From Glaciecola sp. (GTDB taxonomy: Bacteria > Pseudomonadota > Gammaproteobacteria > Enterobacterales > Alteromonadaceae), in the NCBI GenBank assembly GCA_965658765.1, contig CBFHTO010000014.1:90-64089 (forward strand): DNA of 64,000 nucleotides, in the 5' to 3' direction. Position 1 is the first letter of the stretch; each line of letters starts with the position of its first letter. Position numbers and translations under genes: made by a program. The notes beneath the pieces were generated by a model, which ran no database searches, was not told the DNA's origin, and saw nothing but the letters and a program-made list of their open reading frames with translations. This document shows positions 4,173 through 56,679 of this stretch, in pieces.

Positions 4173-5225
<1,053 letters not shown>

Positions 5226-5227
5226 TA

Positions 5228-5254
5228 AAAAGGGGCAGGTTTACCTGCCTTTTT
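5228..5254 (+). terminator. Terminator-like hairpin between mreB and mreC
   Basis: GGCAGG-TTTA-CCTGCC followed by TTTTT in the 36-nt gap. Confidence 0.55.
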
Positions 5255-5261
5255 CATTATT

Positions 5262-6137
5262 ATGAACGAAGTATTTGCACGCGGTCCTACATTATTTACA
5301 AGGCTTTGCATCGTATTGATGTTATCCATACTCGCCATGATCATCGATACAAAAGTGGATAAGGTCGCAACGGTTCGAACATACTTAACGTCACTTGTCA
5401 GCCCGCTTCAATACATTGCTGATCTACCTGGAGCAATTCTCGATTGGAGTGCAACCAGCGTTACCTCGCGAACGACCCTGATAAACGAAAATGCGCGCTT
5501 AAACAATCAAATTGCCTTGATGAATGAAAAGCTACAGCGTTTCCAAGTACTTAAACAAGAAAATGAGAACTTACGTTCTTTGCTAGACGCGCCAGTGAAG
5601 TCTGATATGTACAGAATGATCGCTGAGTTGATGGCGGTAGACAATAATCCTTATACGCATCAAATAGTGATAGATAAAGGAGCAATTCATGACGTTTATC
5701 TTGGCCAATCAGTCTTAGATGACACAGGGATTGTGGGACAAGTGATTGAGGTGGGCACAACCAACAGTCGAGTACTATTATTGTCTGATATTACGCACGC
5801 AATACCAGTACGAGTAAATAGAAACAACATTCGATTAGTGGCAAGCGGCACGGGGTCTCTGACTGAGCTGACCTTAGAGCATGTGCCCCACAGTGCCGAT
5901 TTACAGGTAGATGATTTATTAGTCTCTTCAGGCTTAGGAAACGTATTTCCAGCAGGCTATCCGGTAGGAGTGATTAAAAATATCATCCGAGATGAAAGCC
6001 AGCCATTTGCTAAAGTAACCGTAATGCCATCTGCACAGCTAGATCGAATAAAGTACCTTTTACTGTTGTGGCCACAAGGTTCTGCTCCCGAAGACGCGCT
6101 CTCGCCAGACGAGTTAGTGCCTCGAACAAGCGAATAG
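5262..6137 (+). CDS. mreC: Rod shape-determining protein MreC
   Basis: N-terminal TM and coiled coil (ENENLRSLL); SSGLGNVFPAGYPVG; follows mreB. Confidence 0.97.
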   Translation: MNEVFARGPTLFTRLCIVLMLSILAMIIDTKVDKVATVRTYLTSLVSPLQYIADLPGAILDWSATSVTSRTTLINENARLNNQIALMNEKLQRFQVLKQENENLRSLLDAPVKSDMYRMIAELMAVDNNPYTHQIVIDKGAIHDVYLGQSVLDDTGIVGQVIEVGTTNSRVLLLSDITHAIPVRVNRNNIRLVASGTGSLTELTLEHVPHSADLQVDDLLVSSGLGNVFPAGYPVGVIKNIIRDESQPFAKVTVMPSAQLDRIKYLLLLWPQGSAPEDALSPDELVPRTSE

Positions 6138-6138
6138 G

Positions 6139-6624
6139 GTGACTAAGGTGAAAGGAAACAAATCATTTATTTCTGTCAGTATTGTCATTGGGCTCATTTT
6201 ACAGATAATCCCAATGCCTCCCCCTGTCGATTTATATCGTCCTGATTGGTTGTTATTAATTCTTATTTACTGGGCAATGGCGCTGCCTAACCGAGTCAGT
6301 GTTGGTATTGCTGGCTTGTCAGGTTTGGTGTTAGATCTCTTATACGGGACGGTTTTAGGGGTACACAGCTTCGCTTTGGCTATTCCAATATATTTGGTGT
6401 CTGCAAATTACCAAAGATTCAGAAACTACTCTGTTTTACAGCAAGCTATGATGATTCTTGTGTTATCAACTATGTATCACCTACTAGTGTATTGGTTGCA
6501 GTTTTGGATAACCGGCATTGAATTTAATTGGATATTCTTGTGGCCTGCTTTGAGCTCCATTTTGTTTTGGCCTTGGTTGTTTTGGCTACTTAGAAAATTT
6601 AGAAGAAATTTACGTGTTACTTGA
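6139..6624 (+). CDS. mreD: Rod shape-determining protein MreD
   Basis: Hydrophobic; RPDWLLLILIYWAMALPNRVSVG; DLLYGTVLGVH. Confidence 0.97.
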   Translation: MTKVKGNKSFISVSIVIGLILQIIPMPPPVDLYRPDWLLLILIYWAMALPNRVSVGIAGLSGLVLDLLYGTVLGVHSFALAIPIYLVSANYQRFRNYSVLQQAMMILVLSTMYHLLVYWLQFWITGIEFNWIFLWPALSSILFWPWLFWLLRKFRRNLRVT

Positions 6625-7204
6625 TGAGAACAATTTAATTCTCGCATCCGCTTCACCAAGAAGGCGTGAGTTATTAGCTCAAATCTGTCCTAAATTCGAC
6701 ATACAATCTGCAGATATCAATGAGCAAGCGTTGAAAAATGAATCAGCGACAGATTTAGTTGAACGATTGTCCATAAATAAGGCCCAAAAGATTGCATCGG
6801 CAAATCAACAGTCCATCGTGTTAGGCTCAGATACGGTTGTTGTTGCTGGGAACAACATACTTGGTAAGCCATATGATTTTGATGACTTTAGTCAAATGAT
6901 GAAAACCTTATCGGGTAGGGTTCACCAAGTGCATACTGGGGTCGCGCTCGTTTATCAAGAGCTCTGCTTATTTGAGTTGGTGACGACTCAGATCAGTTTT
7001 GCCGATATTACAACAAAAGAAATAGAACGTTATTGGGCTAGCGGCGAACCCATTGATAAGGCGGGTGGGTATGCTATTCAAGGACTAGGTGGACAGTTCG
7101 TGAAAGCAATCAATGGTAATTATAGCGCTGTTGTGGGTTTGCCATTGTTCCATACTAAACAGCTGATAATGCGAATGCAGAATGACATCGCGGCGCTAAA
7201 TTAA
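6614..7204 (+). CDS. yhdE: Maf-family nucleoside triphosphate pyrophosphatase (YhdE)
   Basis: LILASASPRRRELL; GSDTVV; DKAGGYAIQG; conserved position after mreD. Confidence 0.93.
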   Translation: MLLDENNLILASASPRRRELLAQICPKFDIQSADINEQALKNESATDLVERLSINKAQKIASANQQSIVLGSDTVVVAGNNILGKPYDFDDFSQMMKTLSGRVHQVHTGVALVYQELCLFELVTTQISFADITTKEIERYWASGEPIDKAGGYAIQGLGGQFVKAINGNYSAVVGLPLFHTKQLIMRMQNDIAALN

Positions 7205-7250
7205 AACGCGATATTCACTAAAATTCACCAGCGGTAAAAAGCGAAGAGAT

Positions 7251-8717
7251 ATGAGTGCAGAATTATTGATCAATGTTACACCTTCAGAATCCCGAGTTGC
7301 GCTTATCGAAAATGGAATATTGCAAGAGATTCATATTGAACGTCATACCAAAAAGGGCTTAGTAGGCAATATTTATAAAGGAAAGGTCAGTAGAGTGTTA
7401 CCCGGTATGCAAGCAGCGTTTGTTGATATTGGGCTCGAAAAAGCAGCATTTTTGCACGCTTCCGATATCGCAATCTACGACGAACTTGCCGATGAAGTTA
7501 GCAGTTCGCAGCTTGAGATTAAAGACATCCGCGAACTTGTCAAGGATGGACAGCCCATTGTGGTTCAGGTAGTAAAAGATCCTATCGGCACGAAAGGTGC
7601 TCGACTAAGTACGGATATTACTTTGCCGTCTCGCTATCTTGTTTTCATGCCTTCAGTTACGCACGTTGGCGTCTCGCAAAAAATCGAAGATGAACAAGAA
7701 AGACTTCGCCTAAAGCAAATCTTGAAGAATAGCTGTGACGATAGCGGTGGCTTTATTTTGAGAACTGCAGCAGAAGGCGTTAAAGAAAATGAGTTGATTC
7801 AAGACGCCGAATTTTTACGCAGATTGTGGAGTAAAATACAACAACGAAAGAAAGGCAACAAAGTGCAAGTCTTATATGAAGACTTACCCGTTGCGAGACG
7901 TGTTCTACGCGATTTTGTCGGTACACAAATCGACCGTATTAGAATCGATTCAAACCTCACCTTTAAAGAGCTGATTTCCTTTACTAAAGAATACGTACCG
8001 GAACTCAGTGAGAAGTTGGAATATTATCAGGGTGAATTACCGATATTTGACTTATACGACGTTGAGAACGAATTACAAAGGGCTTTAGGGCGGCGGGTAG
8101 ATCTCAAATCTGGAGGCTATCTGATTATTGATCAAACTGAAGCTATGACAACCATCGATATCAATACGGGCGCATTTGTTGGTCATCGCAATTTGGAAGA
8201 AACGATATTTAATACCAATATAGAAGCGACTTCTGCAATTGCTAGGCAATTGCGCCTGCGTAATCTAGGCGGCATGATCTTAATTGATTTCATCGATATG
8301 CAAAACGATGATCATAAAAGACGAGTGTTGCACTCTCTAGAAACATCAATGTCAAAAGATCGAGCGAAATCAAATATCCATGGTTTTACGTCCCTAGGCC
8401 TTATCGAAATGACGCGGAAGCGAACGAGGGAGTCTATCGAGCATTTATTGTGTGGTGAATGTCCCGCTTGCAAGGGTAGAGGTAGCATAAAAACGGTTGA
8501 AACGATCTGTTTTGAAATTACACGTGAAATTGTCAGAGTCAACAAAGCGTATAATGCGGATATGTTTGTCATATACGCTTCGCCTATCGTAACAGATGCC
8601 TTACTCGGTGAAGAGTCGCATATTCTTGCCGAGTTAGAAGCATTTGTCGGAAAGCAAATAAAGGTGCAAACTGAGTCTTTATATCACCAAGATAAGTTCG
8701 ATGTGGTAATGATGTGA
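7251..8717 (+). CDS. rng: Ribonuclease G
   Basis: ELLINVTPSESRVAL; S1 domain GNIYKGKVSRVLPGMQAAFVDIG; TTIDINTG. Confidence 0.97.
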   Translation: MSAELLINVTPSESRVALIENGILQEIHIERHTKKGLVGNIYKGKVSRVLPGMQAAFVDIGLEKAAFLHASDIAIYDELADEVSSSQLEIKDIRELVKDGQPIVVQVVKDPIGTKGARLSTDITLPSRYLVFMPSVTHVGVSQKIEDEQERLRLKQILKNSCDDSGGFILRTAAEGVKENELIQDAEFLRRLWSKIQQRKKGNKVQVLYEDLPVARRVLRDFVGTQIDRIRIDSNLTFKELISFTKEYVPELSEKLEYYQGELPIFDLYDVENELQRALGRRVDLKSGGYLIIDQTEAMTTIDINTGAFVGHRNLEETIFNTNIEATSAIARQLRLRNLGGMILIDFIDMQNDDHKRRVLHSLETSMSKDRAKSNIHGFTSLGLIEMTRKRTRESIEHLLCGECPACKGRGSIKTVETICFEITREIVRVNKAYNADMFVIYASPIVTDALLGEESHILAELEAFVGKQIKVQTESLYHQDKFDVVMM

Positions 8718-46388: not shown

Positions 46389-46580
46389 ATGCGAACAACA
46401 GTCAGTATTGAAGATGAACTTTTTGCGCAAGCAGCGCAATTCTGCGAACCAAATAGCGATAAAGCCAGTGTGATAAGAGAAGCTATGAAAACTTTCGTGC
46501 TAGTCAAGGCAGCACAAAGGCTCGCAGCGCTTGGTGGAAGGAAACCTGAAATGGAAGATATTCCCAGACAGAGGGGGTGA
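46389..46580 (+). CDS. vapB: VapB-family antitoxin
   Basis: MRTTVSIEDELF..A...K..VIREAM..RLAALGG; overlaps the PIN toxin gene by 4 nt (GTGA). ATG at 46389 preferred. Confidence 0.85.
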   Translation: MRTTVSIEDELFAQAAQFCEPNSDKASVIREAMKTFVLVKAAQRLAALGGRKPEMEDIPRQRG

Positions 46581-46957
46581 AAATGGTATTGGTAGATACC
46601 TCTGTTTGGGTAGCCCATTTTAAAGCTACAAATGATGACCTCGTTTACCTACTAAAGAATGACGAAGTACTATGTCATCCGTTAATATTGGCTGAGATTG
46701 CCTGCCGAACTCCTCCGGGCCCTCGGGCACAGACTCTTAAGGATCTGTCGCTACTGCAAACTATTCCTGTTGCAACGATGCAAGAGGTACTCGAATCCAT
46801 TGAGGTAAACAAACTTTATGGTAAGGGTTGCGGCTATATAGATTTAGCACTTCTAGCGTCAGTTTTTCTATGTAAAAGTCAAAGCTTATGGACTCACGAT
46901 AAAAGATTGAATATGTTAACCTCACAATATGGGAAGGCCTTTCAAATAACCACTTAA
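46577..46957 (+). CDS. vapC: VapC PIN-domain toxin
   Basis: VLVDTSVWV; ILAEI; GYIDLALLAS; LWTHDKRL. Confidence 0.9.
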   Translation: MKMVLVDTSVWVAHFKATNDDLVYLLKNDEVLCHPLILAEIACRTPPGPRAQTLKDLSLLQTIPVATMQEVLESIEVNKLYGKGCGYIDLALLASVFLCKSQSLWTHDKRLNMLTSQYGKAFQITT

Positions 46958-49008: not shown

Positions 49009-49347
49009 ATGAAACTAGTCACTGCAATCGTCAAGCCTTTTAAGCTAGATGATGTTCGTGAGGCCATCTCAGAGATTGGCATCGATGGCTTGACAGTAAC
49101 CGAAGTGAAAGGCTTTGGTCGTCAAAAGGGTCACACCGAGCTTTATCGTGGAGCAGAATACCAAGTGGATTTCTTACCTAAGGTGAAGTTAGAAATCGCG
49201 GTACACGCTGACCAAGTGGAGCGTTTAGTTGAAGCCATCGTTGGCGCAGCAAAAACAGGCAAAATTGGTGACGGCAAAGTCTTTGTCTACGATTTACAGC
49301 ACGCGGTACGAATTCGTACAGGTGAAGTAGACAGCGAAGCCCTTTAA
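49009..49347 (+). CDS. glnK: Nitrogen regulatory protein PII
   Basis: AIVKPFKLDDVREA; GFGRQKGHTELYRGAEY; GKIGDGK; directly upstream of amtB. Confidence 0.97.
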   Translation: MKLVTAIVKPFKLDDVREAISEIGIDGLTVTEVKGFGRQKGHTELYRGAEYQVDFLPKVKLEIAVHADQVERLVEAIVGAAKTGKIGDGKVFVYDLQHAVRIRTGEVDSEAL

Positions 49348-49374
49348 AACTAAGCACAACTCGGAGATAACACA

Positions 49375-50598
49375 ATGGAAACAACTTTTGAACTCGGGTA
49401 TGCATTAGATACCTTTTACTTTTTGGTCTGCGGTGCATTCGTGATGTGGATGGCGGCTGGCTTTGCAATGCTAGAAGCGGGTCTTGTAAGATCTAAAAAT
49501 ACCACAGAAATACTAACTAAAAACGTCGCTCTATACGCAATTGCATGTACGATGTACATGATTTGTGGATATGCCATTATGTATGGTGGCGATATTTTCT
49601 TAAGCGGCATCACTGGTGATGGCGCAACAGGCGCAGAAGACCCTGCAACTTATGCACCTTCGGCTGACTTTTTCTTCCAAGTGGTATTCGTCGCTACAGC
49701 AATGTCTATTGTTTCAGGTGCAGTTGCAGAGCGTATGAAACTATGGGCCTTTTTACTGTTTGCGGTTGTAATGACTGGTTTCATCTACCCAATGGAAGGT
49801 AGCTGGACTTGGGGCGGTAACCCAGTATTTGGTATGTATACACTTGGTGACCTTGGTTTCAGTGACTTCGCTGGTTCGGGTATTGTTCACATGGCTGGCG
49901 CAGCTGCAGCTCTTGCAGGTGTTCTTGTGCTTGGTGCTCGTAAAGGCAAATACACTAAAGATGGAAAAATCAACGCAATCCCAGGAGCAAACTTGCCATT
50001 AGCAACGCTAGGTACGTTTATTTTATGGATGGGTTGGTTTGGCTTTAACGGTGGTTCAGTACTCGCAACAGCAACGGTTGAGTCAGCAAATGCAGTCGCA
50101 ATCGTATTTATGAATACTAATGCCGCAGCGTCTGGTGGTGCCATTGCAGCACTATTGCTTGCTCGCGTATTGTTTGGCAAAGCAGACCTTACTATGGCAT
50201 TGAATGGCGCGCTCGCTGGTCTGGTTGCTATTACTGCTGAACCTTCAACTCCATCAGCACTTGAAGCGACGATCTTTGGCGCACTGGGTGGCTTGTTAGT
50301 AGTTGTCAGTATCATCGGCTTAGATAAACTGAAGATTGATGATCCAGTTGGTGCTATCTCTGTCCACGGTGTGGTTGGTTTACTTGGGCTATTACTAGTA
50401 CCATTTACTAACGACGGTTCTTCTTTCTCTGGCCAAATCATCGGTGCACTTACTATCTTTGTATGGGTATTTGTAACTAGCTTGGTTGTATGGTTAGCGA
50501 TTAAAGCAATCATGGGCGTACGAGTTTCTGAAGAAGAAGAGTACGAAGGTGTTGACGCTAGTGAATGTGGATTAGAAGCCTACCCTGAGTTTAAATAA
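49375..50598 (+). CDS. amtB: Ammonium transporter
   Basis: DFAGSGIVH; WMGWFGFNGGS; AGLVAIT; DDPVGAISVHG. Confidence 0.97.
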   Translation: METTFELGYALDTFYFLVCGAFVMWMAAGFAMLEAGLVRSKNTTEILTKNVALYAIACTMYMICGYAIMYGGDIFLSGITGDGATGAEDPATYAPSADFFFQVVFVATAMSIVSGAVAERMKLWAFLLFAVVMTGFIYPMEGSWTWGGNPVFGMYTLGDLGFSDFAGSGIVHMAGAAAALAGVLVLGARKGKYTKDGKINAIPGANLPLATLGTFILWMGWFGFNGGSVLATATVESANAVAIVFMNTNAAASGGAIAALLLARVLFGKADLTMALNGALAGLVAITAEPSTPSALEATIFGALGGLLVVVSIIGLDKLKIDDPVGAISVHGVVGLLGLLLVPFTNDGSSFSGQIIGALTIFVWVFVTSLVVWLAIKAIMGVRVSEEEEYEGVDASECGLEAYPEFK

Positions 50599-50679
50599 GC
50601 GAGAGAACTAGGATAGAAAGACTCATACAACGATAAACGGAGTCTTTCTAAATTATAATAAGCCATAAAGCTTAAACCG

Positions 50680-50712
50680 AAAACCGCAAATATTAATATT
50701 TGCGGTTTTTTT
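50680..50712 (+). terminator. Terminator downstream of amtB
   Basis: Perfect 30-nt palindrome AAAACCGCAAATATTAATATTTGCGGTTTT running into a T-tract. Confidence 0.85.
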
Positions 50713-51033
50713 ATTTTTAATACTAGGGTCTGTTCAAAACACTTTCTGTCTTATATTTCCGTGGCTAGCGATGCTCGTTGTGGGCATATTCCTGCCATTG
50801 TGTTTTTCTGCTATCTGTGAATTTATGACGCCCTCTAACATCTGGATAGATCATTTCATCTAAAGTGGCGTTTGTTCACCAACGCAGATATGCGCGAGTC
50901 TTGCATGGCGCTACTCTTATATATAAGCAAATCAGTATTTAGTGTATGTCTAAATCGTGCAGAAGAGCCTAGGATTACTACAAGCTCTATATTTTCACCA
51001 ATAACAATAATAGTATACTTGGCTGTCAAAAGA

Positions 51034-51071
51034 CTTAGCCTGTCACAAGCCTTAGCCTGTCACAAGCCTTA
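51034..51071 (+). repeat. Perfect tandem duplication, 2 x 17 bp
   Basis: CTTAGCCTGTCACAAGC twice plus CTTA; degenerate copy CTTGGCTGTCAAAAGA just upstream. Confidence 0.9.
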
Positions 51072-51278
51072 AAGTATGACGTTAACTGATTGTTGTTCTA
51101 TTCACTATAGCAAGGAGCAAGCAAGCGTTCGTGGGCTTAGTTATTGCAAAAACGAATGCTTAGGTGGCGGGGAATCAGTATTAGCGTTAAAAAATATTCA
51201 CGATAATGTATATATGGTGAAAGAAGTTTTTCTTGTGCTTGATTGCGTTCAAAACTATCTTCTATAGGGTTGGTAATT

Positions 51279-51310
51279 AAAAAAAATGCTAGCGATTTGC
51301 TAGCATTTTT
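51279..51310 (-). terminator. Terminator downstream of nhaD
   Basis: AAAAAAAATGCTAGC-GATTT-GCTAGCATTTTT. Confidence 0.85.
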
Positions 51311-51336
51311 GATTCAGATATTGTGTTTAATAGTGT

Positions 51337-53214
51337 TTAGAGGCCACTGCCATTTAGTAATAAATGAACACCGATACTGGCCACATATCCTAAGGCTATC
51401 ACTGGTGTCCACTTGAGATGCGCCATGAAGGTATATTTACCCCTAGCGGCACCTAGCAGGGCAACACCAGCTGCAGAACCTATTGCTAGCATACTTCCAC
51501 CAACACCCGCGGTCAGTGTAACCAACTGCCATTGTTCAAGTGGCATGACGGGATCCATCGTTAATACGGCAAACATCACCGGAATGTTATCTACAATCGC
51601 AGATAATACACCTACAAGCGTATTCGCCCAGATGGGGCCTAAATCGTTGTACATCAATTCAGATATAATGGCCATATATCCAAATTGACTAAGACCTGCT
51701 ACGCATAAAATAACGCCATAGAAGAAAAGCAAGGTATCCCACTCGGCTCTTGCAACTTTCTCCATAACATCAAATTCTTTTACGTCGGCTCGCTGATCAG
51801 TCATGTCTTCAAACATTTCAACCGCGCCGATGCTATTGCCATTTTCATCTCTTATGGGAGCGGCACTGAACATTAAATACGCGCCCAAATTATCAAAATA
51901 GTTCGCGGCATCGTAAGACTTTCCATCTATTGGGTTATCTCGATATTGACCTCTGTAGTGCTGTCGCACACCCGTTTCTGATTTATCGTCAAGCACAACA
52001 TCTGCAAGCGTTGGACGCTCCTTTTTATAGAACGCTTTCCACTGGTCTTTTTTACCAATCATTTCAGCAGCTTTAATACCAGTAAGCTTCTCTAAGGCAG
52101 GGTTCCAATGTGTGACAGTATGGTTGTTGTCAATTATAAATGCAGGGTATTGCTGCTCGTTGATATGATCGCCGATTCTTTCTCCATAACTTTCTAGTAC
52201 TTTTAAGGGATTATTGTGTGATTCGTTTCTACCACCGAAGATAGAATCCGCAGCGATGGTTTTACCTTCTTGACGCTTAAGGTAGAACGAGTAGAGGCCA
52301 AGGTATCCTAAACCAAACATCATGCCTGTAGCTGGAGGTAAATGCAGCGCAGTATGGAAAGTGACGGCTGTGGCAATGGTTGCTAAGAATAGGCCGATCA
52401 TAATTTGCGCGCCGCGTTTCATCACCACATGATCATCAGACGCTTCAGGTGCCCCTTTAGGCAAAGCGAAACTCATTATTACGGCTGGCACTAACCAGTT
52501 AACTACTGATGGAACAAAAATTGGAATAAATTCTAAGAATTCTACTTTACCCTTTTGCCACACCATCAGCGTGGTTATATCTCCAAACGGAGAAAAAGCC
52601 CCACCAGCGTTCGCAGCAATTATGACGTTGATACATGCAATCGATATAAATTTTAGATCTTTGCCACCAACGGCCATTACCACAGCACCCATCAAAAGAG
52701 CAGTGGTTAGGTTATCAGCGATAGGAGAGATGAAGAAAGCCAGCACCCCCGTTATCCAAAAGACCTTTTTGAGAGAATATCCACGAGAAACTAAAAATGC
52801 ACGCAAAGCTTGAAATACGTTGCGTTCTTCAAGCGCATTGATGTAAGTCATGGCAACTAAAAGAAACAAGAATAACTCTGCATATTCGATAATAGCGTGT
52901 TTTATTGCGTCATGCGCATAGTCTGACATACCGATGTCTTTAAATGCCAATGCAACTAAAATCCAAATTACACCAGCTGCAAAAAGAACCGGTTTACTTT
53001 TCAGTAAGTGAATCTCTTCTTCTAATGGTACAAGTGAATAAGCTAGGACAAAAATTGCGACTGCGGCATAGCCATAAAAAGTGGCACTAAGATCGGGTAT
53101 TGTAATATCACCTGATGCAAACGAATTAAACGGCAGTAAAAGTAGGGTGGCGAACGTTAACAGCAAACGAAAGCTTAGGTAATTGCTCATAGATTGAAGT
53201 ATCGACGTATTCAT
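51337..53214 (-). CDS. nhaD: NhaD-type Na+/H+ antiporter with an internal PAS domain
   Basis: NhaD motifs LEEEIHLLKSKP, AELFLFLLVAMTYINA, SPIADNLTTAL, ANAGGAFSPFGDITTLM, RAEWDTLLFFYG, SAIVDNIP, GGSMLAIGSAAGVA; PAS-like insert at about aa 345-476. Confidence 0.9.
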   Translation of the reverse strand: MNTSILQSMSNYLSFRLLLTFATLLLLPFNSFASGDITIPDLSATFYGYAAVAIFVLAYSLVPLEEEIHLLKSKPVLFAAGVIWILVALAFKDIGMSDYAHDAIKHAIIEYAELFLFLLVAMTYINALEERNVFQALRAFLVSRGYSLKKVFWITGVLAFFISPIADNLTTALLMGAVVMAVGGKDLKFISIACINVIIAANAGGAFSPFGDITTLMVWQKGKVEFLEFIPIFVPSVVNWLVPAVIMSFALPKGAPEASDDHVVMKRGAQIMIGLFLATIATAVTFHTALHLPPATGMMFGLGYLGLYSFYLKRQEGKTIAADSIFGGRNESHNNPLKVLESYGERIGDHINEQQYPAFIIDNNHTVTHWNPALEKLTGIKAAEMIGKKDQWKAFYKKERPTLADVVLDDKSETGVRQHYRGQYRDNPIDGKSYDAANYFDNLGAYLMFSAAPIRDENGNSIGAVEMFEDMTDQRADVKEFDVMEKVARAEWDTLLFFYGVILCVAGLSQFGYMAIISELMYNDLGPIWANTLVGVLSAIVDNIPVMFAVLTMDPVMPLEQWQLVTLTAGVGGSMLAIGSAAGVALLGAARGKYTFMAHLKWTPVIALGYVASIGVHLLLNGSGL

Positions 53215-54033: not shown

Positions 54034-55722
54034 ATGAAAAATATTACTTTTCTTGTTCTTAGTCTTATATGTTTTAGCAATTCTCTACTTGCTTACGACC
54101 GTATTACTGGTTTTCCTTTTGCGACGCGCTCGGAAGTGATTGCCCAAAATGGAATGGCAGCTACTAGCCAGCCACTTGCCACACAACTTGCCTTGGATAT
54201 TTTGAAAAGAGGTGGTAATGCGGTGGATGCCGCCATCGCCGCAAATGCAATGCTTGGCTTGGTTGAACCTACAGGTTGTGGTATCGGCGGGGATTTATTT
54301 GCCATAGTGTGGGATGCAAAAACGCAAAAATTATATGGTTTGAATGCATCTGGCCGTTCTCCAAAATCACTCACTCTTGATTATTTTAAAGAAAATCGCA
54401 TCGACAGTATCCCTAAATTTGGACCCTTGCCTGTTTCTGTACCTGGCGCGGTTGATGGTTGGTTTAAGTTACAAGAACGATTTGGCAGTATGAGCATGCA
54501 AGAAATTTTGGCACCTAGCATTGCTTACGCCAAAAGTGGATTCCCAGTTTCGGAGTTAATTGCTTACTATTTAGAGGTAAATCAAAAACGTATCGGGCAT
54601 TATCCTGGCTTTACAGAGACATTCACGTTTGACGGTAAGACACCCAAAAAGGGACAAATATTTCGCAATCCTGCTCTTGCAAGTACCTATGAAAAAATCG
54701 CAACGGGTGGCCGTGACGCATTTTATAAAGGTGATATTGCACGGGTTATTGGAGCTTTTATGAAGGAGCAGGGTGGATTCTTGAGTTATGAAGACATGGC
54801 ATCACATACCTCTGACTGGATAGAGCCGGTTTCGACTAATTATCGGGGATATGACGTTTGGGAGCTACCGCCTAATGGTCAAGGGATCGCGGCATTGCAA
54901 ATTTTAAATATTCTGGAACTTTATGATATCGAAGGTATGGGATTTGATTCACCAGAATATGTTCATACCTTTGTTGAGGCGAAAAAACTGGCGTTCGCAG
55001 ATAGGGCAAAGTTTTATGCTGATCCAGACTTTAATGAAATCCCTGTTGATTGGCTTATATCAAAAGAGTACGCAAAGCAACGTCAAAAGTTAATCGATGC
55101 TTCACAAGCAGCAAAAAGGGTTGATGCTGGGCGACACGAGGGCGATACGATTTATTTAACCGTCGCCGACAAAGATGGAAACATGGTTTCGCTTATTCAA
55201 AGCAATTACCGTGGGATGGGTTCTGGTATGATCCCTACGGGGCTTGGCTTTGTGCTGCAAAATAGGGGAGAGATGTTTGCTCTTCAGCAAGGACATTTTA
55301 ATCAGTATGCACCAAATAAACGTCCTTTCCATACGATCATTCCTGCTTTTGTCACTAAAAATAACCAGCCATTAATGAGTTTTGGGGTCATGGGCGGAGG
55401 TACTCAACCTCAGATGCACGCTCAAATAGTGGTAAATATGATTGATTTTGGTATGAATTTACAAGAAGCTGGAGACGTGCCAAGAATTATTCATACTGGT
55501 TCGAGCACTCCGATGGGTAAAGTTATGACTGATGGCGGCTATATCAGCCTCGAATCGGGTTTCAGCCCACAAACACGGCGCGAATTGATCAAAAAAGGGC
55601 ATGTTTTAAGGGATAGCTTAGGCGCTTTTGGTGGTTATCAAGCTATTATGTATGATGCAAAGAATGAAACTTATTTCGGCGCGTCTGAATCTCGTAAAGA
55701 TGGACAAGCGGCAGGATATTAA
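54034..55722 (+). CDS. ggt: Gamma-glutamyltransferase (secreted)
   Basis: Signal peptide; GGNAVDAAIAA; GIGGDLF; nucleophile GDTIYLTVAD; KRPFHT; GVMGG..Q. Confidence 0.93.
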   Translation: MKNITFLVLSLICFSNSLLAYDRITGFPFATRSEVIAQNGMAATSQPLATQLALDILKRGGNAVDAAIAANAMLGLVEPTGCGIGGDLFAIVWDAKTQKLYGLNASGRSPKSLTLDYFKENRIDSIPKFGPLPVSVPGAVDGWFKLQERFGSMSMQEILAPSIAYAKSGFPVSELIAYYLEVNQKRIGHYPGFTETFTFDGKTPKKGQIFRNPALASTYEKIATGGRDAFYKGDIARVIGAFMKEQGGFLSYEDMASHTSDWIEPVSTNYRGYDVWELPPNGQGIAALQILNILELYDIEGMGFDSPEYVHTFVEAKKLAFADRAKFYADPDFNEIPVDWLISKEYAKQRQKLIDASQAAKRVDAGRHEGDTIYLTVADKDGNMVSLIQSNYRGMGSGMIPTGLGFVLQNRGEMFALQQGHFNQYAPNKRPFHTIIPAFVTKNNQPLMSFGVMGGGTQPQMHAQIVVNMIDFGMNLQEAGDVPRIIHTGSSTPMGKVMTDGGYISLESGFSPQTRRELIKKGHVLRDSLGAFGGYQAIMYDAKNETYFGASESRKDGQAAGY

Positions 55723-56679
55723 ATGAGCCAAGCACAGAAAGGCATCTGCGCAGAGCCTAACTTACATTCTCTGTATTTGTTGTTTAATGTTGTGGACGAA
55801 GACATCGAATGCATTCGCTCTAAGCTTTCGAGGTTGCTGGATATTTTCGAACATTTTGATAATGAACATTATGAAGCGATGGTATCTGGTGTTATCGGCA
55901 TAGGTCATGCATTCTGGGAAGAATTATACGGTGAAACCCGTCCGATGCATTTGTCGCCTTTTCCAGACATGCAATGTGAGGACAGAGTTGCACCAGTCAT
56001 CCTCGCTGATTTATTCATTCAAATAAGGGCAGACCGCTTAGATATATGCCAAGCGATGGGCATGGAAGTTATGCAGGTCTTAAAACTTCATACCGAATTG
56101 GTAGAACAGATCCAAGGCTTTCGATATTTGGATGGCAGAGACTGGACCGGTTTCGTGATTGAGGACGCCAACCCAAGGGGTAGCAAAAAGTTTAAAGTAA
56201 GTTTGGTAGGTGATGAGGATCCCGTATTTACAGGCGGTTCATATATTCATATTCAGCGCTATCGCCATGACATGCAAAAGTGGAATACTCTTTCCGATAA
56301 GTATCAGCAACAAGTAATGGGTAAAACAAAAGAGCACAATTTAGACGTAGTCGGTCCTGAGCTTGATTCACATGCGTTTAGGACGAAAATTGTGGGTCCC
56401 GGAGGGCAGTATCCGATTTATCTCAATCAAAGCATGCCATATGGTGACATGACCGCTCAAGGTATATATTTTGTCGCCTGTAGCAGTCATCCTCAGTCAT
56501 TTAAAGACTTGCTACATAGCCGGATTTATGGAGATTCAAATGGTCATTATGACCGTTTATTGGATTACACCGTCGCAGAGACGGGAGCTGCATTTTTCGC
56601 GCCGCCAATGAGCTTTATTCGTCAACAGGCGCTGTCACAGCAAGCTGAAGAGCTCGATAGTGATGTACTAGACAACTGA
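55723..56679 (+). CDS. DyP-type peroxidase homologue (YfeX-like) with altered distal residues
   Basis: GICAEPNLH; GFRYLDGRD; GGSYIHIQRY; DSHAFR (proximal His); QSMPYG; ETGAAFFAP. GFVDG is replaced by GFVIE. Confidence 0.85.
   Translation: MSQAQKGICAEPNLHSLYLLFNVVDEDIECIRSKLSRLLDIFEHFDNEHYEAMVSGVIGIGHAFWEELYGETRPMHLSPFPDMQCEDRVAPVILADLFIQIRADRLDICQAMGMEVMQVLKLHTELVEQIQGFRYLDGRDWTGFVIEDANPRGSKKFKVSLVGDEDPVFTGGSYIHIQRYRHDMQKWNTLSDKYQQQVMGKTKEHNLDVVGPELDSHAFRTKIVGPGGQYPIYLNQSMPYGDMTAQGIYFVACSSHPQSFKDLLHSRIYGDSNGHYDRLLDYTVAETGAAFFAPPMSFIRQQALSQQAEELDSDVLDN

Follow-up and report, generated by a model that had tools for sequence, protein, structure and literature searches.

An NhaD-type sodium/proton antiporter with an internal PAS domain in Glaciecola: architecture, relatives and possible function

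What can a sensor domain do inside an ion antiporter? The question is raised by one gene in a stretch of 64,000 nucleotides of DNA from Glaciecola sp. (contig CBFHTO010000014.1 of assembly GCA_965658765.1), the whole of which is called the window here. A single unbroken open reading frame (ORF) at window positions 51337..53214, on the minus strand, encodes a protein of 625 amino acid residues plus stop, designated NhaD-PAS, in which a PAS domain stands between two parts of an NhaD-family Na+/H+ antiporter. A first-pass annotation of the DNA had described the gene in these terms. Its coordinates, the length of 625 residues, the motifs and the PAS call are all correct, as judged from the reading of the ORF and from hidden Markov models (HMMs). 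It is rather probable, from the sequence comparisons and the model presented below, that the PAS domain regulates NhaD transport in response to some intracellular signal, an allosteric gate being the best reading.

A structural model of NhaD-PAS was predicted with AlphaFold2 (AF2) from an alignment of 74 sequences, with a mean predicted local distance difference test score (pLDDT) of 77.6. The parts of the gene, with the evidence for their limits, are as follows.

51337..53214 (-): complete coding sequence of NhaD-PAS, with matches to NF038006, CitMHS, PAS_9, PAS_4 and PAS
53116..53214 (-): residues 1-33, N-terminal signal-peptide-like or TM0 helix (predicted helix 3-33, AF2)
52267..53085 (-): residues 44-316, membrane part N-terminal to the insert, probably repeat 1, a linker (249-268) and the two first helices of repeat 2 (AF2, invariant residues, positive-inside counts, hhalign)
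52159..52266 (-): residues 317-352, Lys/Arg-rich tether and short N-cap helices (336-341 and 344-351) ahead of the PAS core (pLDDT, column identity, counts of Lys plus Arg)
51799..52158 (-): residues 353-472, PAS core (Pfam, AF2, Foldseek, conservation, substitution rates)
51742..51798 (-): residues 473-491, connector from the last PAS strand to the next membrane helix (predicted helix 472-511, AF2)
51340..51741 (-): residues 492-625, membrane part C-terminal to the insert (HMM, invariant residues, AF2)

Antiporter core and position of the insert

The membrane part is recognized by the NCBIfam model NhaD_1 (NF038006) with 577.5 bits against a cutoff of 80. The match falls into two stretches, the first of which spans residues 71-326 (profile positions 2-257 of 405). 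The Pfam family CitMHS (PF03600), which represents the ArsB/NhaD/citrate carrier superfamily, also matches in two stretches with the PAS domain between them. The hairpin and broken-helix motifs, including S538...D542-N543 and S574...S580, are invariant in the 74 homologues, as are the residues S163, D167, N168, N202, D212, T214, T215, D493, T494, S538, N543 and S580. The NhaD motifs of both halves are thus intact, as the annotation had stated.

It is important to compare these residues with those of the functionally characterized NhaD of Vibrio cholerae (Vc-NhaD). One offset, of +13 N-terminal and +149 C-terminal of the insert, would place the 12 invariant residues on positions reported as essential in Vc-NhaD; the mapping is by arithmetic on residue numbers. 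Ten of these positions we take to be S150, D154, N155, N189, D199, T201, T202, S389, N394 and S431, which are reportedly derived from mutagenesis by Habibian and co-workers in 2005. The residue S428, also reported as essential, would land on A577 under the +149 offset and was left out of the mapping. The other two positions, Asp344 and Thr345, are described as critical in Vc-NhaD in the title of Ostroumov et al. (2002), as cited in PMC9408914.

The search of the model with Foldseek matched the membrane part to ArsB (10tp, TMt 0.68), VcINDY (6okz), NaCT, NaS1 and Pho90. In the model the membrane part has an IT/DASS elevator fold that includes a pair of re-entrant hairpins and a pair of broken helices. 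The AF2 results in the literature on Halomonas NhaD1 agree with an IT/DASS-like fold of NhaD (PMC9408914), and a sequence search of the Protein Data Bank (PDB) found no NhaD structure. The acidic segment that follows the N-terminal helix is nearly without Lys and Arg (on average 0.2 at residues 34-45) and is predicted to be periplasmic; canonical NhaDs at other loci have a hydrophobic N-terminal leader resembling that of NhaD-PAS. From the sequence, Na+(Li+)/H+ antiport activity of the protein is probable.

The same genome (4.08 Mb in 253 contigs) contains two canonical NhaD paralogs:

G000:C52:3456-4850: canonical NhaD paralog, open frame of 509 residues
G000:C88:9630-11024: canonical NhaD paralog, open frame of 480 residues

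Both align to residues ~20-325 and ~472-623 of NhaD-PAS, with only about 7-20 residues between the two blocks. The stretch aligned to residues 319-484 has 18-42 residues in 65 canonical NhaDs from other genomes, in keeping with the short loop that the annotation had ascribed to characterised NhaD proteins, and 166-172 residues in 32 PAS-bearing proteins. The extra segment is therefore about 140-150 residues long. Its insertion point is common to every PAS-bearing member.

The annotation had placed the insert in the central loop. It is central in the sequence, but it probably lies inside repeat 2, between helices 2 and 3, rather than in the linker between the two repeats. In the model, unit 1 (residues 46-248) and unit 2 (residues 269-316 and 486-621) have their elements in matching order. 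Unit 1 consists of three helices, an arm helix, hairpin 1 (S163-P-I-A-D167-N168), a broken helix (N202...D212-I-T214-T215) and a last helix, TM6. The part of unit 2 that follows the insert (residues 492-625) consists of helix 3 of the repeat (D493-T494), an arm helix, hairpin 2 (S538-A-I-V-D542-N543), a broken helix (G572-G-S574...S580) and a last helix. Two pairs of motifs tie the units together, S-P-I-A-D-N with S-A-I-V-D-N and A-N-A-G-G-A-F-S with T-A-G-V-G-G-S-M. The local alignment of repeat 1 with repeat 2 by hhalign gave the same register with an E-value of 0.13-0.15, which is not significant even with 97 sequences, and the global mode gave no alignment. Should this register hold, the actual linker between the repeats would be residues 249-268, and the PAS domain would sit where repeat 1 has a short periplasmic loop (residues 94-100).

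The side of the membrane on which the insert lies can be assessed from the number of Lys and Arg residues. Over the 74 sequences, the segments flanking the PAS domain have on average 7.6 (residues 312-352) and 4.1 such residues, against 0-0.4 in the predicted periplasmic loops, with the exception of the TM5-TM6 loop (1.8). By the positive-inside rule, and in accordance with the topology of the model, the PAS domain would be located in the cytoplasm; this bears on the question of sidedness that the annotation had put forward for checking.

The two ends of the insert are joined to the membrane part in different ways. At the N-terminal side there is a tether of ~35 residues with two short cap helices; residues 317-352 form the least conserved segment of the protein, with a mean column identity of 0.48. 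At the C-terminal side the last PAS strand ends in E-D470-M-T472-D, which contains a D-(I/V/M)-T motif. This motif precedes the signalling helix in PAS kinases, and homologues of the PAS domain in signalling proteins read E-T-L-E-D-I-T-E at its end. In the AF2 model a continuous helix, residues 472-511, runs from D470-x-T472 into the membrane helix bearing D493-T494, with the arm helix and hairpin 2 next. The connector runs through the amphipathic segment F-D-V-M-E-K-V-A-R-A-E-W (consensus FD(V/I/L)M/F-x-K-V/I-ARAEW), which is also found in canonical NhaDs. A rigid helical coupling of the PAS domain to the membrane helix is plausible on the basis of this model.

The PAS domain and its relatives

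The PAS domain is under purifying selection, like the membrane core. The ratio of nonsynonymous to synonymous substitution rates (dN/dS) is 0.04-0.12 for the PAS domain and 0.045-0.076 for the core in five pairs with unsaturated synonymous divergence. Within the PAS domain, F359, W370, N371, G387, W392, F395, A451, P453 and G463 are invariant in the 74 homologues. At least 90% conservation is found there for H369, E375, L377, T378, G379, A382, Y396, R400, A404, D405, Y420, F440, G444, D456, G459 and E466.

The domain assignment is given by four models: PAS_9 (residues 359-473, 34.4 bits against a threshold of 27), PAS_4 (29.1 against 23.1), PAS (25.7 against 22.6) and TIGR00229 (27.0 against 22.9). 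The model shows the five-stranded antiparallel sheet of a PAS domain in its canonical order, with main strands at residues 358-362, 367-370, 434-440, 445-455 and 461-470. Helices and a short strand (424-426) separate them, with a pLDDT of 83-88 in the full-length prediction and up to 97 when the domain was predicted alone. A full PAS fold, as claimed in the annotation, is in agreement with these thresholds and with the confident model; the failure of HMMs to call the domain, which had been considered possible, did not occur. Foldseek returned 405 PDB matches at E≤0.001, and all among the matches listed are PAS or LOV domains. The fold is about equally similar to the PAS domains of DosP, NifL, LOV proteins, Aer2, BvgS and EAG, with TM-scores of ~0.5-0.67.

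The NhaD PAS domains have a signature of H369-W370-N371, W392, F395-Y396, R400-P401, D405, Y420, A451, G463, E466 and D470-x-T472. The PAS segment alone (residues 340-482) was compared by phmmer with 1.84 billion representative proteins, and gave 8933 matches at E≤1e-3, of which 3536 reach E≤1e-10 and 230 reach E≤1e-30. The best 150 are proteins of several domains, 273-4799 residues in length, with 2 to 31 copies of the domain at 30-44% identity; the top matches are 35-44% identical across the whole PAS domain (e.g. P0123, P0125, P0127 and P0129). Those matches that were scanned for domains are GGDEF cyclases, histidine kinases, and receiver and LuxR-type regulators.

A comparison of 359 PAS repeats of such signalling proteins with 25 NhaD PAS domains is instructive. 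W370, N371, F395, Y396, D405, Y420, A451, G463 and E466 are each conserved to at least 90% in the two sets alike, and R400-P401 to at least 80%. These positions map to strand B, helices E and F, an extra helix, and strands H and I. From this map of secondary structure, they would be on those parts of the fold that surround the pocket where a PAS domain binds its ligand. H369, the last residue of strand B, is conserved in the NhaD set and falls below 80% in the signalling repeats.

The extra helix, located between Fα and Gβ, is a feature of a large PAS subfamily without a name, otherwise found in tandem arrays of kinases, GGDEF proteins and LuxR proteins. By its sequence the NhaD PAS is a member of this subfamily: it has the W-N, F-Y-x3-R-P-x2-(A)D, Y, A, G-x-x-E and D-x-T elements over ~125 residues. 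The subfamily, with its 3536 representatives at E≤1e-10, occurs as tandem near-identical repeats, from 2 to 31 in number, the protein P0128 having 4799 residues. The signature of the tandem repeats is W-N...W-x-x-F-Y-x3-R-P-x2-A-D...Y...A...G-x-x-E...D-I-T.

Three types of PAS domain with well defined cofactors were considered and rejected. The Eα of the NhaD PAS reads K-D-Q-W-K-A-F-Y and not G-x-N-C-R-F-L-Q as in the LOV type, and there is no conserved Cys anywhere in the domain, which also excludes the type of photoactive yellow protein (PYP). The Fα segment T-L-A-D-V-V-L-D (residues 402-409) has no His, as would be needed for the haem type of FixL and DosP. The nearest sequences in the PDB are those of plant phytochrome PAS-A (E 2e-13, profile).

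Distribution and origin of the fusion

The family of NhaD-PAS proteins comprises at least 120 clusters at 90% identity. The best 120 protein clusters at this level, from a collection of 5.8 billion proteins, are mostly 600-660 residues long, a few being shorter and partial. Both PF03600 and PAS are precomputed domains in nearly all of them, down to 59% identity. The members that have a name are from Alteromonas, Ningiella, Neptuniibacter, Glaciecola, and Desulfobacterales or Desulfobacteraceae. When one genome of each species was scanned with an alignment of the PAS domain and the TM9 junction, the complete PAS was found in 20 species; among the carriers are Neptuniibacter, with two closed chromosomes, and Desulfobacterium, with contigs of megabase size. 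The search of architecture and taxonomic spread that the annotation had suggested thus revealed a small family in Desulfobacterales and marine Gammaproteobacteria. The fear that the fusion could be a misassembly, or unique and under relaxed selection, is not borne out by the number of clusters or by the dN/dS values.

The fusion is rare among the relatives of the host. Of 121 genomes sampled from the host family, 2 have it at full length, and neither of two other genomes of the same genus does; in the host class it occurs in 1 of 400 genomes, the window's own. In Desulfobacterales, the order of a Desulfobacteraceae carrier, it was found in at least 9 of 151 genomes (about 6%), 8 candidates per genome being scored.

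Two of the Desulfobacterales carriers searched have two or three copies. Three NhaD-PAS matches were found in genome G521 and two in G520. In genome G528 two copies with equal scores (C105:2650-4485(-) and 5642-7477(+)) are located ~1.2 kb apart and opposed, which suggests an inverted duplication. At positions 5044-6819 of locus L027, from a Desulfobacula metagenome-assembled genome with a coverage of ~4x, the NhaD-PAS gene is broken into three overlapping frames; this is probably due to errors of sequencing at such low coverage, and probably does not mark a pseudogene.

A maximum-likelihood tree (LG+G4, quick search) was built for 97 NhaD cores, including 32 PAS-bearing ones, after the columns of the insert had been taken out. 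All 32 PAS-bearing proteins are in one clade with a support of 99 in the Shimodaira-Hasegawa-like approximate likelihood ratio test (SH-aLRT), and one change of state suffices. The clade is placed among canonical NhaDs of Thermodesulfobacteriota (Desulfobulbia and Desulfuromonadia). Inside it, the proteins of Glaciecola, Alteromonas, Ningiella and Neptuniibacter group together (99), and this subclade is nested within the Desulfobacterales sequences. The canonical NhaD paralogs of the host have long branches and are far from its PAS-bearing copy. The sequence relationships are most simply read as a single insertion event in a Desulfobacterales-like lineage, with a later horizontal transfer to marine Gammaproteobacteria. 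No compositional sign of recent transfer was seen in the GC content, which is 42.8% for the NhaD-PAS gene and 41.6% for the window; the transfer would be old enough for a difference in composition to have faded.

Possible roles, related systems and neighbouring genes

The arrangement of the parts allows us to propose how a regulated antiporter of this kind might work. An NhaD-family Na+(Li+)/H+ antiporter of the IT superfamily, elevator-type, would serve as the working core. A cytoplasmic PAS domain would have been inserted once, in a Desulfobacterales-like ancestor, into the variable cytoplasmic loop before helix 3 of repeat 2, and the gene would then have moved horizontally into a small number of marine Gammaproteobacteria, the present Glaciecola-like host among them. 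The PAS domain would be loosely tethered at its N-terminal end and joined at its C-terminal end, through D-x-T and the helix, to a membrane helix that leads on to the arm helix of the transport domain and to hairpin 2. A signal sensed in or by the PAS domain could shift the connecting helix, or a PAS dimer under the scaffold, and this shift could permit or block the elevator movement. The result would be post-translational control of Na+/H+ exchange alongside the host's two presumably unregulated NhaD paralogs. We infer the helix coupling, the gating and the existence of a ligand. A narrower version, in which a ligand or redox signal in the PAS pocket locks or releases the transport domain through the D-x-T helix, would make NhaD-PAS the first PAS-gated secondary transporter; this is possible and is put forward tentatively.

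Several observations weigh against a PAS domain that gates an NhaD carrier. The score for the TIGR00775 NhaD model is 409 bits, under its cutoff of 577 bits, as expected because an internal insertion of ~140 residues costs score. The placement within repeat 2 depends on the hhalign result given above, on motif similarity and on the order of helices, and the profile evidence is weak. The pLDDT is below 50 for residues 475-484 of the connector and for residues 319-334 of the tether. The tree is midpoint-rooted and comes from a quick search, and its canonical sequences are among the matches listed in a pattern-limited scan. Phytochrome PAS-A, the nearest match in the PDB, does not have the W-x-x-F-Y-x3-R-P segment, and the PDB sequence search found no solved structure for this PAS subfamily. 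Finally, the comparison of sequence and fold yielded no ligand, cofactor or stimulus for the PAS domain.

The insert might instead be a structural module which does not sense, but stabilizes the dimer by clamping the two scaffold domains of a homodimer, and which is kept for assembly. PAS domains often dimerise, and many bind no known ligand. The transporters of the IT/DASS fold to which the model was matched are dimers, the NhaD PAS has none of the residues that define a cofactor, and the insert is within the presumed scaffold. However, canonical NhaDs work without such an insert, two of them in this genome, and the D-x-T output motif is kept here. In addition, the residues shared with the 359 signalling repeats are on the usual pocket-lining elements (Eα, Fα, Hβ and Iβ) and not on surfaces only. 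A purely structural role, the main rival of regulation, appears unlikely. In a transceptor the roles would be reversed: the NhaD core would report the occupancy by Na+ or Li+ or the pH, the PAS domain would pass this on to other proteins, such as kinases or diguanylate cyclases whose PAS domains, being of the same subfamily, could pair with it, and transport would be secondary. The same PAS subtype does build many kinases, GGDEF proteins and LuxR regulators, and Neptuniibacter has four further proteins with it beside NhaD-PAS. In the present host, however, no other PAS of this subtype was found in the genome, and the PAS must therefore, as far as can be read from the sequence, work in cis. No neighbour gene is common across 23 NhaD-PAS loci, which leaves no conserved partner, and the invariance of all NhaD transport residues together with the strong purifying selection on the core fits a working carrier. 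The suggestion of the annotation that the transporter also signals through its PAS domain is weakened for this host, and a transceptor is improbable.

An artefact was also considered, namely an assembly chimera, a decaying insertion, or a transporter disrupted and inactivated by it. The draft state of the genome, with its 253 contigs, and the low TIGR00775 score could be taken in its favour. More than 100 clusters nevertheless show the same architecture, which is also present on megabase contigs and on the two complete chromosomes of Neptuniibacter. The reading frame is unbroken, the PAS dN/dS is low, and NF038006 matches both halves end to end. Such an explanation is extremely improbable as a whole, and a misassembly or a pseudogene is ruled out by the closed genomes, the clusters and the dN/dS; the fusion is genuine and in frame, as the annotation had it. 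Among these alternatives, regulation of transport by the PAS domain is the reading that we prefer.

It is useful to compare NhaD-PAS with systems already described. We know of no characterised NhaD with a sensor domain. Canonical NhaD (TC 2.A.62; Vibrio parahaemolyticus, V. cholerae and NhaD1/2 of Halomonas sp. Y2; reviewed in PMC9408914) shares with it the NF038006 match, the motifs, the functional Asp, Asn, Thr and Ser residues, the leader and the predicted fold. The difference is in the segment of ~170 residues (a tether of ~35, a PAS domain of ~120 and the connector), in place of the 18-42 residues of canonical proteins.

Carriers of the AAE/YidE-YbjL type, also members of the IT superfamily, have TrkA_C/RCK_C domains between the membrane halves, on the cytoplasmic side, in the inter-repeat linker. 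They are similar to NhaD-PAS in having a soluble regulatory domain in mid-sequence, on the cytoplasmic side of an IT fold. They differ in that the domain is RCK_C rather than PAS, and the insert of NhaD-PAS seems to be within repeat 2 and not in the linker. The KCNH channels (EAG/hERG/ELK) also combine a PAS fold with an ion-transport protein, and Foldseek gave TMt values of 0.49-0.63 to the PAS domains of EAG1, ELK and hERG. Unlike NhaD-PAS, they are eukaryotic channels in which an N-terminal PAS ('eag') domain acts through the CNBHD, and the relation is by fold only.

The multi-PAS histidine kinases, GGDEF proteins and LuxR regulators have the same PAS subtype, with 35-44% identity and a shared signature. 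In these regulators coiled-coil linkers lead to a kinase, cyclase or DNA-binding output, whereas in NhaD-PAS the helix after the PAS domain becomes a membrane helix of the transporter. In concept, the elevator-type cation/proton exchangers with an attached sensor, SLC9C1 (PMC10620091, PMC10620092) and KefC (PMC11150392), are similar. However, these belong to the CPA and not the IT superfamily, and their sensors are C-terminal and of other folds (a voltage sensor plus CNBD in SLC9C1, KTN/RCK in KefC), with established signals: voltage or cAMP, and glutathione adducts, respectively. Carriers of the MFS fused to PAS, CBS, CNBD or UspA domains have been catalogued and are uncharacterised; the 2023 review of them does not mention NhaD (PMC10710835). 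These fusions are likewise bacterial secondary carriers with plug-on sensor domains, but have another carrier fold and usually a C-terminal rather than an internal domain (PMC10710835).

NhaD-PAS is thus an uncharacterised variant of NhaD and of transporters with plug-on sensors, and not a new category. Full-text searches of the library used found no paper pairing NhaD with a PAS domain, and those for CitMHS with PAS gave unrelated papers only. The annotation, too, had named no characterised PAS-regulated NhaD. Its description of the gene as an undescribed system holds in that no paper on the fusion was found, but the gene is not singular, being one of at least 120 clusters that are annotated automatically. 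Database entries name these proteins 'sodium:proton antiporter NhaD' or 'PAS domain-containing protein'.

What is known of post-translational control in bacterial Na+/H+ antiporters is mainly intrinsic pH sensing. Covalently attached sensor domains have been characterised in few exchangers, e.g. KefC and SLC9C1, and in the literature searched there is no PAS among the characterised sensor domains of secondary carriers. NhaD-PAS may offer a compact system in which to study how a soluble sensor couples to elevator motion. Its PAS insertion is internal and not terminal, and comes from a PAS subfamily that is large and orphan. The signal of the PAS domain, once identified here, would apply equally to the thousands of signalling proteins, as yet uncharacterised, that share this type of PAS. 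If the proposed regulation is true, the antiporter would be a one-protein read-out for the signal of the subfamily, whose kinases and cyclases number in the thousands and occur in sulfate reducers, methanogens and marine bacteria. The gene would also be a clean case of an innovation by domain insertion that has crossed phyla, with one insertion and a transfer to Gammaproteobacteria already owning two plain NhaDs.

The gene neighbourhood differs between the groups of carriers. At seven Desulfobacterales loci (L023-L028 and L030) a cytidylate-kinase-like gene of 245 residues is located upstream (~4224-4961 in L023), its end overlapping the start of NhaD-PAS. Five other loci (L018-L021 and L033) have in common an upstream gene for a signal-peptide protein of 237 residues. 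None of the neighbour genes in the window recurs at the loci of its closest relatives, and there is no synteny. The features around NhaD-PAS in the window are the following, the names of the glyoxalase-, GGT- and DyP-like genes being taken from a reading of the sequences.

54034-56679 (+): gamma-glutamyltranspeptidase-like (GGT) gene, 562 residues, then a DyP-type-peroxidase-like gene, 318 residues
53380-53844 (-): glyoxalase-like gene, 166 nt upstream of NhaD-PAS on the same strand
51282..51310 (-): terminator-like hairpin, a 12-pair stem followed by a T run, 27 nt past the NhaD-PAS stop codon (from the sequence)
50599-51336: gap of 738 nt between amtB and the antiporter gene, with no ORF of 80 or more residues
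50679-50710: strong terminator-like hairpin past glnK-amtB
49009-50598 (+): glnK (P-II) and amtB ammonium-channel pair, 27 nt apart, downstream of NhaD-PAS
46577-46957 (+): ORF of 126 residues, resembling a PIN-domain (VapC-type) toxin

The stop codon of the GGT-like gene and the start codon of the DyP-like gene abut at 55722/55723, and this pair is divergent from the glyoxalase-like gene. The ORF at 46577-46957 starts with MKMVLVDTSVWVAHF. Within the gap of 738 nt, at ~51030-51075 on the minus strand, a unit of 17 nt, AAGGCTTGTGACAGGCT, is present in two tandem copies and a partial third.

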